From assembly GCA_903854195.1 (NCBI GenBank), contig CAINVO010000026.1:1-55670 (forward strand): a stretch of DNA of 55,670 nt, in the 5' to 3' direction. This DNA is from an uncultured bacterium. Lineage in GTDB: Bacteria > Patescibacteriota > Minisyncoccia > Phycocordibacterales > CAINVO01. Shown here piece after piece: positions 38,876 to 50,361 of this stretch. Below the pieces are notes generated by a model. It was not told the origin of the DNA. It ran no database searches and was given only the letters and a program-made list of their open reading frames with translations. Numbering within the stretch: position 1 is the first letter of the stretch; every line of letters begins with the position of its first letter. Made by a program: the position numbers and the translations under genes.

Positions 38876-39088
38876 ATGGCCATAGGAAAAAATGTAAAAT
38901 TTTACTTGTATGCCGCAAAAAGAAGTGGTCCATACAAGGGAAAAAGACTCTTGGTAATTAACTACACTTACGAAGGAGACCAAAATCATACTTTGAAAGA
39001 TCTGGTAGATTTTCTTAGTGAGAAAAAAGTCGACCTATCTGTAGTGGAATTACCCAGCTGTTTTGCCACTTTCACAAAGGTTCAATAG
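38876..39088 (+). CDS. small hypothetical protein
   Basis: 70 aa; RBS AAGGAG, promoter TTGACA-17-TATTAT at 38792. Confidence 0.75.
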   Translation: MAIGKNVKFYLYAAKRSGPYKGKRLLVINYTYEGDQNHTLKDLVDFLSEKKVDLSVVELPSCFATFTKVQ

Positions 39089-39136
39089 CCCACCACCCCA
39101 ACAGGAAATTCACTGTCACGGGGTGGTGGGTTTTCT
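39088..39136 (+). repeat. 3' hairpin family I, copy A
   Basis: 11-bp perfect stem, loop AACAGGAAATTCACTGTCAC. Confidence 0.8.
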
Positions 39137-39400
39137 TTTAAACATTTACAAACATTTTTTGATGATAACATTATACCCCTGAGCGAAAGCCATGAAGGAT
39201 GGGTGAATAGTCGCTGCGTGCAGGAAGGGTCACCCCTATCTTGCACGCAGTTTTTTATATCAAATTTTTTATACTGAGCCACCCAAGGGCAGAACTAAAA
39301 TTGGTCTGATAATCATTTATTGCTTTAAAATAATTTTGGTGATAAATTCAGATAAGAGGTTCGCCTCGCACATAAACAACAAACAAAAAGGAACTCGGGT

Positions 39401-40000
39401 ATGCCTGAAGAAATGCTAGTAAATAAAATTATAACGGGAGCTATTCCAGAGCCAAACCTTACTTGGTGGCTTACGTATTTGGAAAATTTCCGCCTACGTT
39501 TGAAATCGGAATTAAACCGATTCACCCTGGATAATATCGGTAAGTGTGGACACCTTCGTGATGGTGAGTACGGCAGTCACAAATTGTCAGAGGATAACCC
39601 TGTGCTCGTTGGGAACAACAAATTTTCTCTGAGCACACAAGGTATCTTTGATGCCGAGATACTGTCCCCCACACAACAACAACTACCCAAAAAAGAAGGG
39701 GTAAGTGTCAAAATGTTCTGGGGATTAACTCGCAACGCTGAATGGGTAAAAGTTGAATACTACTTTTTGACAAAAGGTCGAAAGGAAGTAGCAACGATGG
39801 TTAACATTAGGGAGACAGACCTAGAGAAATTATTCAAAATGGAATTTCATCTTACTGAAGTTACCCCGATTAAAGTCTGGACCTTGCTCTATTACCAAGT
39901 CAAAGAATGGCACAGAAAACGCGAAGAGTTATTTCGCCACTCTAAGTCACTCTTTGATGAGGTTTGCCTGGTAAGCCAACTATTTAAGGTTAACTGCTGA
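39401..40000 (+). CDS. hypothetical protein
   Basis: 199 aa with RBS. Confidence 0.75.
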   Translation: MPEEMLVNKIITGAIPEPNLTWWLTYLENFRLRLKSELNRFTLDNIGKCGHLRDGEYGSHKLSEDNPVLVGNNKFSLSTQGIFDAEILSPTQQQLPKKEGVSVKMFWGLTRNAEWVKVEYYFLTKGRKEVATMVNIRETDLEKLFKMEFHLTEVTPIKVWTLLYYQVKEWHRKREELFRHSKSLFDEVCLVSQLFKVNC

Positions 40001-40016
40001 GAATTAAATCAATCAT

Positions 40017-40049
40017 AGCTGGGGACGCATGCGTCCCCAGCTTTTTTTA
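40017..40049 (+). terminator. 26-bp perfect palindrome followed by a T-run
   Basis: AGCTGGGGACGCA|TGCGTCCCCAGCT. Confidence 0.75.
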
Positions 40050-40139
40050 AATCAATATCTATTAAAGTCAGAATAAACATTGACATATACTAATTTTAGT
40101 TATATTTTACGAACAGATTAAATCAAACAGGAGGCAAGA

Positions 40140-40436
40140 ATGGGCAACCCAATCACAAAAGCCGAGAAAATCTTCGAAGTTGGAGAAAGCGTCTACTTTC
40201 GATCAAACACAATGGGAAGAGCGGTATTAGATGATGTTGTAAGGAAAATGGTTCAGAAGCATGGAGCCGGTCCGCACATCATCATCCGAACCAACATTGA
40301 TGAAAGCGATGGTGGCCAAAAACTAAAGTTCGAAGGTAGCATTAGTGATGGGCTCGGAGAAGACGCCCCTAGCCCATCCATGGAGAAAGAAATGGTTTGG
40401 GATTCACGCTATTTTAGTTCTATCCCTCGCACCTAA
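40140..40436 (+). CDS. hypothetical protein
   Basis: 98 aa; RBS AGGAGG, TTGACA at 40080. Confidence 0.75.
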   Translation: MGNPITKAEKIFEVGESVYFRSNTMGRAVLDDVVRKMVQKHGAGPHIIIRTNIDESDGGQKLKFEGSISDGLGEDAPSPSMEKEMVWDSRYFSSIPRT

Positions 40437-40439
40437 AAC

Positions 40440-40492
40440 AAACCACACTCAACCCAGGAATCCACCTGTCACGTTGAGGGTGGTTTTTTGTT
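40440..40492 (+). repeat. 3' hairpin family I, copy B
   Basis: loop CCAGGAATCCACCTGTCAC; stem nearly identical to 50303-50361. Confidence 0.85.
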
Positions 40493-47911: not shown

Positions 47912-48024
47912 CACCCTGTTACAATCTTAATTTAAATAAGTTTGACATAATTATATTAATATGTTATTATTAGGTCTGAGCAGTGAAAGATGAGTAACTG
48001 CACAAATTCAACAAAGGAGTTATT

Positions 48025-48312
48025 TTGACACGAGAAAAATTTACAGAAACATTCCACTGGGCGAAGATCATGTGGATCATGGGTATACTTAATGTTGTGG
48101 CAATGTGTCCGCAATTGGAAAGTATTGTGGTGACACACAAAGTAGAAGGGATCAATCTCACAATGTTCTTTATTTACCTTGTGATACAAATCGCCTTTGC
48201 CATCGACGGATTCCTAAAAAGAAATCGCCCGTTTTGTATCTCCATGATACTTAGCACAATGATGTCATCAAGCATTATTGGCAGTGTAATTTTTATTCGC
48301 TACCAACACTAG
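48025..48312 (+). CDS. SemiSWEET/PQ-loop-like three-TM transporter
   Basis: VAMCPQL, VEGINLTMF; TTG start with AAGGAG RBS. Confidence 0.7.
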   Translation: MTREKFTETFHWAKIMWIMGILNVVAMCPQLESIVVTHKVEGINLTMFFIYLVIQIAFAIDGFLKRNRPFCISMILSTMMSSSIIGSVIFIRYQH

Positions 48313-48441
48313 ACAAAAAAGGATACCCTCTCAAAAGCCCCTTCCGATACTCGGTTTGGGGCTTTTCTATTATGTAAAATTCATATGTTCAAGTTATTTT
48401 CACACCATTGAATGAACTAGAACCTCTGATATACTTTTGAT

Positions 48442-48864
48442 ATGAAAAAAATAACACCCTTTCTTTGGTTTGATAACAACGCCGAAGAAGCAATAAATTT
48501 TTATCTTTCGGTTTTTAAAAATGGAAAGAAAATAAATAATAATAAATTCGAAATAGAAGAACAAGAATTTATGGTATTAAACGGCGGACCCCATTTTAAA
48601 TTTAATGAAGCAATTTCAATATTTGTAGATTGTGAGAATCAAGAAGAAGTAGATAATTTATGGGAAAAGCTGTCGGAGGGAGGTGAGAAAGGCCAATGCG
48701 GTTGGTTAAAGGATAAGTTTGGACTCTCTTGGCAAATAATACCCAACATTCTAGGTGAAATGTTGAGTGACCTAGATGAAGAAAAAGCTGATAGAGTTAT
48801 GCAAGCAATGATTAAAATGACGAAAATTGATGTAGAGGAATTAAAAAAAGCCTACAACAACTAA
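48442..48864 (+). CDS. VOC-family (PhnB/3-demethylubiquinone MT-like) protein
   Basis: KITPFLWF, LNGGP, CGWLKDKFGLSWQ. Confidence 0.93.
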   Translation: MKKITPFLWFDNNAEEAINFYLSVFKNGKKINNNKFEIEEQEFMVLNGGPHFKFNEAISIFVDCENQEEVDNLWEKLSEGGEKGQCGWLKDKFGLSWQIIPNILGEMLSDLDEEKADRVMQAMIKMTKIDVEELKKAYNN

Positions 48865-48977
48865 CAACGTTGTGGGTGGCTCAACGTGTACGATCTGCAA
48901 CACAAATTTAGCCAGGATCAATTTGTGTTTTTATATGGAAAAGAGTAATCTTCAAATTAGAAAACAAGGAGGTCTAA

Positions 48978-49247
48978 ATGAAACATGTCACGTTTAGGGT
49001 TTTAAAAAGTGGAGACAAGTTTTTTGCAAAACTCAGCAGCGGAAAAATCCACGAGTTCATGGTGCTCGAGAGAACTGTTCAGGTTTATCTTAGTGAAAGT
49101 CCAGCAAATGTTGTGGACTTAAAAACTGGTAAATTCGTTTTTATCAAGGATACACCACAGACAAAAGTTTACCCGAAATCCATGGCAAAAAACAAAAAAC
49201 CAGATGCTGAAAATATGTGCACAACAGAAGCCAGTATCTGGGAGTGA
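48978..49247 (+). CDS. hypothetical protein
   Basis: 89 aa; RBS AGGAGG, terminator at 49265-49297. Confidence 0.75.
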   Translation: MKHVTFRVLKSGDKFFAKLSSGKIHEFMVLERTVQVYLSESPANVVDLKTGKFVFIKDTPQTKVYPKSMAKNKKPDAENMCTTEASIWE

Positions 49248-49719
49248 TTAGCCACATCCTATTCAAAAGGCCGCTCATCTTATGGGCGGCCTTTTTTATA
49301 ACTTAAGAACACAAAAAAGAATATAAAAAAACAGGCCCCCTTTTAACAAGAGTGGCCTGTTGGCAATTAAATCGAAAGGGTTGGTTTCTTCTTGGAATAA
49401 CCTTCAAAAAATGATTCAGAGATTTAGGCTGCCTACCTATTCTCTATGCTGCAAACTATTATTGATGTTTTCATCAACAAAGCCCAGAGGACATGACTTG
49501 TCCAAGCTGTACGGAACCGCCCGTAGCTCATTTTTGATCAAAAACCACGATACAAACAAGGTACCAGTTTCAGAAAAATACTACACCGAGAGGCATTATC
49601 ATGTCAAGACACACAAAGCCCAAACAACCCGAAAGAAAACCCTATCTTAAACTCAAAGCGTGTTTGACAAAACATTAAAAAAGTGATATTTTCCGAACAG
49701 AATTGCTCTAGAAAAACTT

Positions 49720-50304
49720 ATGAGAAAGAAGCTATCGAAACACGATGACACCACCAGAAAGTTGGCATCGTTTAAAAGGCACTGCTGGTTTTTGTTTCAG
49801 CCATTACTGCTTGCGTTTTTGGCAAGCGTGATCTGGAACTACACCTTGTTCAAATACAAAATTCACTTCGACAAAGAAGATGAAGGTCCCCTACTCACAG
49901 GTGTGATTGTTATCCTGGCAGTGGCATATGGCATCATGACAACATCGACCTTTGAATCAGTGTATGGCAAGCACCAGAAATCCGTGATCAGTGTTTTGAA
50001 GAAGGATCGGGAGACATTTTTATGTTACAGGGATGAAAGGATCCCCATAATAATTCATCTCCTCATCATCACTTTTTCAGCACTACTCCTCGGCATTGTT
50101 TCATTGATTGCCTACAAGACTTTGTACGCCGGACTCGTGTCGGTATTCTCTGTCTCGTTTGTTTTGTCACTCTATTGGCTTGTTATCATTGAACTCCAAA
50201 ATCCGGCAAAAAGCCTGTGGTTCATCGAAAGAACTCCAAATGAATGGCTTACAATTGACATTGACGACGCGTTCAAATTAGGAGAAGGGCACGAAGAAAT
50301 ATAA
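49720..50304 (+). CDS. four-TM hypothetical membrane protein
   Basis: 194 aa; TTGACA at 49664. Confidence 0.78.
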   Translation: MRKKLSKHDDTTRKLASFKRHCWFLFQPLLLAFLASVIWNYTLFKYKIHFDKEDEGPLLTGVIVILAVAYGIMTTSTFESVYGKHQKSVISVLKKDRETFLCYRDERIPIIIHLLIITFSALLLGIVSLIAYKTLYAGLVSVFSVSFVLSLYWLVIIELQNPAKSLWFIERTPNEWLTIDIDDAFKLGEGHEEI

Positions 50305-50361
50305 ACCCACAACTCAACAACAGGAAATCCACCTGTCATGTTGAGGGTGGGTTTTTTGTTT
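50303..50361 (+). repeat. 3' hairpin family I, copy C
   Basis: loop AACAGGAAATCCACCTGTCAT. Confidence 0.85.

Follow-up and report, generated by a model that had tools for sequence, protein, structure and literature searches.

Introduction

The promoter-early stem-loop (PeSL) cassettes of T4-like phages have a conserved stem-loop terminator that flanks ORFans in hyperplastic regions. They are composite elements, in which a conserved sigma-70 promoter and an AT-rich region lie beside the stem-loop, and recombination at the motif has been shown experimentally (PMC2839356, PMC4122927). In this study we describe a family of hairpins, family I, in a 55,670-nt stretch of DNA from an uncultured bacterium of the Patescibacteriota (GenBank contig CAINVO010000026.1; the whole stretch is referred to as the window), for which PeSLs appear to be the closest functional analogy. 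As in the PeSLs, the same motif is found on unrelated genes, and gene and terminator modules appear to have been shuffled. PeSLs reside in phage genomes, however, whereas family I is located in chromosomal islands and had no member among the IMG/VR viral contigs in two scans. We also rejected identity with the PeSLs because no conserved promoter follows the family I hairpins; promoter-like sites were present within 150 nt of the hairpin in 10 of 36 copies, versus 7.2 ± 2.6 in shuffles, and their distances were scattered. On balance, we favor the reading that family I hairpins are homologous Rho-independent terminators, restricted to one lineage, which close small, horizontally acquired ORFan cassettes of a shared mobile pool.

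Other short palindromes also invite comparison. Repetitive extragenic palindromic (REP) elements and bacterial interspersed mosaic elements (BIMEs) are palindromes tagged with GTAG and CGTC (PMC3733652), and NTS/SRM repeats are cut by Ssn nucleases (PMC11893778). Like family I, the REP and NTS/SRM elements are short, mostly downstream of coding regions and plausibly transcribed, and a conserved non-palindromic part orients them. Family I differs in being conserved at the tip rather than in a flank, and in having 1–5 copies per genome and no dimers. Integron attC sites, like family I, are imperfect palindromes that lie at the 3′ ends of single-gene cassettes, which share a strand and are unrelated in function, but the cassettes of family I carry their own promoters and T-runs, and only a minority of the cassettes in an array have the hairpin. 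The hairpins bound by CsrA/RsmA have GGA in the loop, in a CAGGA(U/A)G-like sequence. The family I tip, which reads ACAGGAAA, resembles the CAGGA core, but its GG is predicted to be paired rather than in the loop.

Intrinsic terminators have much of the anatomy of family I: a GC-rich hairpin and then a U-run, 0–20 nt past the stop codon on the coding strand, with an A-run before the hairpin and stems that are kept through compensatory and G·U changes. Such terminators need no conserved loop, however, and to our knowledge ordinary terminators form no sequence family of this kind, in which a two-tier tip (internal loop, CAGG/CCUG helix and A-rich loop) is conserved and is common to unrelated genes in many genomes.

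Results and Discussion

Structure and Position of the Hairpins

An 814-kb genome in 45 contigs, with a GC content of 37% and a completeness of 94%, includes the window as contig C26. Four family I hairpins, copies A to D, were found in the window, each preceded by an ORFan. In the list below, the scores in bits are those of covariance model R1, which was made from the four copies and comprises a 6-bp stem plus the tip.

38876..39088, plus strand: 70-aa ORFan before copy A, no Pfam match
39088-39131 (with tail 39088..39140), plus strand: hairpin copy A, 12-bp stem GCCCACCACCCC/GGGGTGGTGGGT, tip AACAGGAAATTCACTGTCAC, tail TTTTCTTTT; 40.7 bits
40140..40436, plus strand: 98-aa ORFan before copy B, no Pfam match, 45.8% GC
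40440-40486 (with tail 40440..40497), plus strand: hairpin copy B, stem AAACCAC-A-CTCAAC / GTTGAG-G-GTGGTTT, tip CCAGGAATCCACCTGTCAC, tail TTTTTTGTTTT; 30.8 bits
46644..47027, plus strand: 127-aa ORFan before copy D, no Pfam match, 46.1% GC
47041-47079 (with tail 47041..47087), plus strand: hairpin copy D, of the short subtype, stem AAACCCACTG/CAGTGGGTTT, tip AACAGGAAACCCCTGCTTG, tail CCTTTTTT; 31.9 bits
49720..50304, plus strand: 194-aa ORFan before copy C
50303-50354 (with tail 50303..50363), plus strand: hairpin copy C, stem AAACCCAC-AA-CTCAAC / GTTGAG-G-GTGGGTTT, tip AACAGGAAATCCACCTGTCAT, tail TTTGTTT; 42 bits

The loops of these four copies had been pointed out in an initial annotation of the window, and all are present where it placed them. 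Each folds as a hairpin, with a predicted minimum free energy (MFE) of −20 to −32 kcal/mol and a z of −3.2 to −6.9 versus shuffles. The annotation was also correct that three copies begin within about 4 nt of a stop codon, the distance being 0 nt in copy A (the G of TAG is the first base of the stem), 4 nt in copy B and −1 nt in copy C, which overlaps TAA; in copy D it is 13 nt. A T-run begins 0–2 nt past the stem of each of the four, and likewise in the ~45 relatives described below. The hairpins have two tiers. Their arms are C-rich on the 5′ side and G-rich on the 3′ side; next come an asymmetric internal loop (5′ AA or C, 3′ TCAC, TCAT or CTTG), a helix of 4–5 bp and an A-rich loop of 5–8 nt. 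The consensus of the tip is AA-CAGG-AAAN(1-4)-CCTG-YYNN. An inner CAG(G)/(C)CTG helix, reported earlier for every loop, was seen in all four, as CAGG/CCTG except in copy A, where it is ACAG/CTGT.

The four stems were initially regarded as differing between copies. That is so for the inner 6-bp stems of copies A and C, which are separated by three compensatory double changes (CACCCC/GGGGTG in A, CTCAAC/GTTGAG in C), while 18 of their 21 tip bases are identical. To call the stems unrelated was an overstatement, however, as all four have a C-rich/G-rich base in common, (A/G)CCCAC...GTGGG(T), and copies B and C are near-identical throughout. Model R1 scored the four copies at 31–42 bits and the best other match in the window, with both strands searched and filters off, at 13.3 bits, a gap which indicates that their resemblance is beyond chance. 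The hairpins had no Rfam match at the gathering threshold, nor at E ≤ 5, in keeping with the suggestion that the element had not been described before. Copy B is flanked by convergent genes, with stop codons at 40436 and 40503, and is thus probably bidirectional. Copy C belongs to the final plus-strand cassette ahead of a minus-strand open reading frame (ORF) and a gene for a large serine recombinase (LSR).

Distribution of the Family

Scanning of the genome and of a set of candidate phyla radiation (CPR) bacteria with covariance models, as the initial annotation had proposed, and with sequence patterns yielded ~45 distinct copies in ~35 genomes and metagenome contigs. Model R1 alone found relatives in six other taxonomic families of the same order, and in those relatives the outer stem and the TTTTCT tail, which are outside the model, also match. 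With an improved model, R2, there were matches at E ≤ 0.05 (E-values of both models are rough, owing to shortened calibration) in 28 of 401 genomes of the order, ~19 of which (~5% of the order) were judged to have true members. From the remainder of the class, 400 genomes gave one weak match. An exact 23-mer of the commonest subtype was present in 17 GTDB species representatives, labelled Ca. Taylorbacteria/Paceibacterota, and 17 of the 41 matches of a looser pattern in metagenomes were true members. The hairpins form a family confined to one order of Paceibacteria-type CPR bacteria.

Two subtypes were distinguished. The long subtype has the form AACCCACCATCTC-AAC-ACAGG-AAACC-CCTGT-CGC-GAGATGGTGGGTTTTCTGTTT, with copies B and C as variants with CTCAAC/GTTGAG and copy A as a variant with CACCCC/GGGGTG. 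The short subtype, ACCCACC-AACAGG-AAAA-CCTG-YTTY-GGTGGGTTTTCTTTT, includes copy D, whose nearest relatives are in comparison genomes G321, G254 and G270. There are five copies in the genome to which the window belongs (four in the window and a fifth at C21:59974-60027, minus strand) and 1–3 in most other genomes. A simple regex scan of the own genome found no copy beyond the window, and the same-genus genome G001 has no family copy. A strict pattern had a sole match among 60 relatives, in G022, which we rejected as a chance match in a coding region.

Covariation and Strand Bias

An alignment of 38 sequences (A7) was used to analyze the pairing. The structure pairs 89.5% of the cells in the alignment, versus 40–48% when the partner is slid, and 10 pairs have changed on both sides, versus 3.1 ± 1.3 in shuffles (none of 500 shuffles was as high). 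Compensatory change was observed in 9 of the 13 lower-stem pairs, and the stems therefore covary. G·U/U·G cells numbered 38–42 and A·C/C·A cells 14–15 (~3:1), with 13 of the A·C cells at one tolerated position; this excess indicates that the pairing is kept in the sense RNA of the upstream gene. The G/T-rich 3′ arm is more conserved than the C/A-rich 5′ arm (1.59 versus 1.17 bits per column), because transitions in the 5′ arm give wobble pairs and those in the 3′ arm mismatches, and the excess is in part a matter of ascertainment, as several search patterns fixed the 3′ arm.

Cassette Arrays and Probable Exchange of Terminators

All four hairpins of the window lie within a 15.5-kb stretch of ~22 small same-strand genes, which runs from a tRNA gene to just before the LSR gene. 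The LSR is listed for context.

35776..35847, plus strand: tRNA-Asn(GTT), head of the cassette array
51628..52995, minus strand: LSR with Resolvase, Recombinase and Zn_ribbon_recom matches, far end of the array

Most of the array genes have no Pfam match, the exceptions being OmdA, a VOC-like domain, TipAS, a metallophosphoesterase and DUF6629, and their GC content is 41–47%, versus 37% for the genome. Each array gene is followed by a terminator-like hairpin of its own, which is of family I in only 4 of the ~22. No direct repeat of the 3′ end of tRNA-Asn was found in the island.

Similar settings were observed in other genomes. In 14 of 18 copies outside the own genome, no more than 23 nt separate the core from the stop codon, and the genes upstream of family copies are unrelated small ORFans, which bears out the earlier proposal that the element is common to unrelated cassettes. 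In G254 and G178, family copies follow tRNA-Asn at 0.7 kb and 2 kb, respectively, in the same orientation as in the window, so that three family-bearing arrays adjoin tRNA-Asn; in G164, a copy is 3 kb from an LSR gene adjoining tRNA-Ser. Further copies, covariation and an association with variable loci, the absence of which the initial annotation took to speak against the element, were thus all found.

Genes and terminators do not keep to fixed partners. Contig L058 (JAZKIM010000003.1) has three or four copies in 3 kb, in an array with homologs of three window genes in a differing order. The window gene 43141-43545 is followed by another hairpin, and its homologs in G092 and L058 precede family I. 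Conversely, five homologs (49–62% identity) of gene 49720-50304, which precedes copy C, have other terminators, one of them with the same stem type and another tip.

The fifth copy of the own genome closes a 100-aa ORFan that is inserted into the S10 ribosomal-protein operon, between rplB and rpsS and in antisense orientation. The rplB-rpsS spacer is 695 nt long in this genome versus 54 nt in G001, and the insertion (C21:59923-60616; L080:9923-10616) was observed to contain a bidirectional terminator, the family I hairpin, the minus-strand ORFan and a long inverted repeat. In G178, the tRNA-Asn array contains a homolog of this ORFan (50% identity) that has a different terminator, which indicates that cassettes move between loci and that terminators are exchanged.

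Family I as Probable Terminators of a Mobile Cassette Pool

Based on their anatomy and position, we infer that the hairpins terminate transcription, and the gene/terminator mismatches suggest that shuffling takes place at or near them. In the mechanism that we propose, RNA polymerase would complete the ORFan, and the CAGG/CCUG mini-helix with its A-rich loop would fold first. The C-rich 5′ arm would then pair progressively with the G-rich 3′ arm as far as the U-run (UUUUCUKUUU), with release of the transcript 0–20 nt past the stop codon. The A-run ahead of the hairpin may confer activity in both directions on some copies, e.g., copy B. Gene and terminator modules would be recombined within the pool, giving arrays beside tRNA-Asn and LSR genes and the stray insertion in the rplB-rpsS spacer, and one terminator type would be found after unrelated genes because the cassettes belong to this shared pool. 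The stems would drift via G·U intermediates and compensatory changes, with the tip, ACAG(G)-AAAN-(C)CUGUC-R-Y, remaining near constant.

The initial annotation had considered the loop to be a recognized site. The anatomy, position and strand-specific pairing of the hairpins fit an intrinsic terminator instead, and no protein, RNase or recombinase reader was identified. Nevertheless, a near-constant tip implies an additional sequence-specific requirement. In A7, C25, A28 and C39–T42 are the same in all 38 sequences and C43 in 37 of the 38, and the upper helix barely varies. The tip was found on at least seven different inner stems, with the asymmetric internal loop, AA(C) against TC(R)Y, kept across the family and a loop length of 4 to 8 nt. 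A search unbiased with regard to the tip, in which the 3′ arm alone (RAGATRGYGGGTTTT) was run against 400 genomes, returned ~19 hairpins, of which roughly 15 had the family tip and two were plain.

Several points weigh against simple homologous terminators with a constant tip. Termination alone leaves the tip unexplained, as no conserved loop is needed for it. The invariance of the tip is partly circular, because most copies were found by models or patterns that fixed the tip or the 3′ arm, and the search with the 3′ arm alone recovered one hairpin with another tip (CATGG-ATTTT-CCGTG) and several with compensatory variants of the tip helix (ACAGA/TCTGT, ACAGAG/CTCTGT). In addition, no recombination junctions were mapped inside a hairpin, so that shuffling at the terminator is deduced from the gene/terminator mismatches. 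The tip is a genuine helix that is more constant than the stems, yet it is not immutable.

Gene regulation in uncultured CPR bacteria is almost unknown. If family I hairpins are terminators of a mobile pool, the covariance model can be used to show where horizontally acquired ORFan cassettes end in the genomes of one order, and the family would be evidence that such tiny genomes retain shuffled arrays of cassettes at tRNA-Asn and even within the S10 operon. The 20-nt tip also provides a concrete RNA bait for a possible RNA-binding partner. If, on the other hand, the tip is merely a folding nucleus, family I would be a tidy but ordinary case of terminator homology in a mobile gene pool.

Alternative Explanations

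Three other readings were weighed, of which a docking or processing factor for the tip is the most interesting, although it is itself rather unlikely; a REP-like palindrome is less likely than this, and a DNA recombination site is the least likely.

In the first, the terminator would be tagged, its tip serving also as a docking or processing site for a dedicated trans-acting factor, which could be an RNase, an RNA-binding protein or a regulator encoded by the element or the host. Transcripts from the cassette pool would thereby be marked to be stabilised, degraded or regulated. We regard this as a tentative possibility. It would account for an upper helix and adjoining bases that are near-invariant while lower-stem pairs change on both sides, for the presence of the same tip on so many inner stems and for the retention of the asymmetric internal loop; moreover, the variation in loop length fits an RNA hairpin better than a duplex operator with fixed spacing, and the G·U bias places selection on the sense RNA. 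However, no conserved neighbor gene was found across loci, and the apparent invariance that the reading draws on was inflated by the design of the searches, as the tip-helix variants and the one different tip show. Occurrence in ~5% of the order's genomes, with 1–5 copies each, is also thin for a dedicated host system. Recognition by CsrA was rejected, as tblastn found no CsrA or Hfq homolog; with the E. coli and B. subtilis CsrA as queries, the best E-value in the 94%-complete genome was 0.63. A still more speculative extension is that the tip, ACAGG-AAAN-CCUGUC-R-Y, might be a transcript tag through which a docking factor of this order treats the mRNAs of the mobile ORFan pool as a class. 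If true, this could provide, for example, 3′-end protection, targeted decay or self/non-self marking of acquired genes.

Several known motifs were compared with the tip and set aside. By inspection, K-turn, boxB-like and GNRA-fold readings misfit the variable loop length. Likeness to the reverse complement of a tRNA T-arm, or to the CAGG/CCTG T-stem of the adjacent tRNA-Asn, amounts to a 4-bp identity with different loops. Many copies have a Chi-like GNTGGTGG in the 3′ arm, but B, C and D lack it, and it was judged a by-product of the G-rich arm.

In the second, family I would be a miniature mobile palindrome, similar to REP elements or miniature inverted-repeat transposable elements (MITEs), in which a trans-acting enzyme places copies of a ~55-nt unit at the ends of genes and the role of the unit as a terminator is only secondary. 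The conserved unit does stop exactly at the hairpin and T-run, with unconserved flanks, and it is found after unrelated genes and patchily across many families of one order. We nonetheless consider this improbable, as there are 1–5 copies per genome and not tens to hundreds, and the compensatory divergence of the stems is old and not the product of recent bursts. Target-site duplications were not visible, and neither a RAYT/IS200-like gene nor a single-domain Ssn-type GIY-YIG gene was seen beside the copies. Identity with REP elements was rejected because the unit is bounded by an A-run and a T-run, A7 contains no unpaired GTAG or CGTC tag, and all copies are single units without REPIN/BIME dimers. 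Identity with the Ssn-related NTS/SRM repeats was likewise rejected, given that there is no CGTC head and that the only nearby GIY-YIG-like gene is 4.7 kb from copy C; that gene (55086-55652, minus strand, 188 aa) matches T5orf172/MUG113 (E about 1e-13 to 1e-14) and is not of the single-domain Ssn type.

In the third, the hairpin, as duplex or extruded strand, would be an attC-like or LSR att-like site for insertion and excision of cassettes. Single-gene, same-strand cassettes bounded by a tRNA gene and an LSR gene, the shuffled gene order between arrays, a ~50-bp extent with dyad symmetry like that of LSR att sites, and the CTCAAC...GTTGAG of copies B and C, which recalls the attC core RYYYAAC/GTTRRRY, would all be in its favor, but we think it highly improbable. 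The CTCAAC/GTTGAG boxes are internal rather than terminal and are restricted to B, C and G164, most members having CATCTC/GAGATG or none; IntI is absent beside the array, the genome's only two tyrosine recombinases (PF00589 matches at C21:15992-16474 and C3:32963-33478) being away from it; only 4 of ~22 array cassettes have the hairpin; and the T-runs and adjacency to stop codons are left unexplained. The G·U strand bias fits RNA, or just one strand of DNA. The suggestion in the initial annotation that the loop is a substrate for the LSR gained no support either, as some copies have no LSR gene within 10 kb and one is inside the S10 operon.

Additional Observations

A second type of hairpin in the window, family II, was found at 38646-38688 (AGCCC-G-CACAG...CTGTG-A-GGGCT) and 45725-45768 (CCCCC-TCAGAG...CTGTG-GGGGC), with CCAGGACTTACACTGTG / CACGGAACTCACACTGTG in common. 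These hairpins were rejected as members of the same family, as alignment A2 shows a CACAG...CTGTG stem around a TCC...GGA helix, and they may be distant relatives of family I.

The long inverted repeat in the rplB-rpsS spacer is a 134-nt element (C21:60470-60603; L080:10470-10603), with a perfect 24-bp inverted repeat around a 62-nt centre, GAACCTTGCGCAGGCTGACGGGCCGAGAAGAGCAAAATCCCAGCAGGGATTTATGTGTGT (MFE −64.5, z −10.3). The centre is 93% identical to a sequence at G001:C35:4007-4066 (L170), which has different 23-bp arms and is right after a stop codon. Partial matches to the centre were observed on other G001 contigs and in G012, and it has no Rfam match. This is another element with a conserved centre on variable arms. 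The spacer itself is a hot spot of insertion across the order, with gaps of 0.8–2.4 kb in G004:C5, G007:C192, G009:C1 and G003:C2 (L165-L168) that contain unrelated small genes and their own terminators.

In G001, no cassette array is present at tRNA-Asn, and a 565-aa serine recombinase gene ends right next to it, separated by a terminator alone (C1..C7; L086, reverse strand 4565-6334). The tRNA-Asn gene is therefore a recurrent integration point in the genus. Further LSR paralogs are present on C4 and C40 of the own genome.

The sequence TTCGAA is 3.8-fold enriched in the window between 35900 and 51300, with 11 sites (e.g., 36504, 37359, 46537, 47104 and 50393), or 0.71 per kb versus 0.19 genome-wide, and was also noted in L058, L052, L087, L120 and L175. 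In several genomes, TTC(G/T)AAC(A) was observed 20–45 nt after hairpins or 10–50 nt before −35 boxes. Such sites could serve as operators or be targets of a methylase or restriction enzyme (53285-54562 encodes an N6_N4 methyltransferase). Lastly, metagenome contigs L087 and L120 have a common CAAGATTCCGCATTTGTAAGGG(C/T)GAAATGC ~40 nt after family I copies with different 5′ arms, which may represent a conserved neighboring element or the start of a gene.

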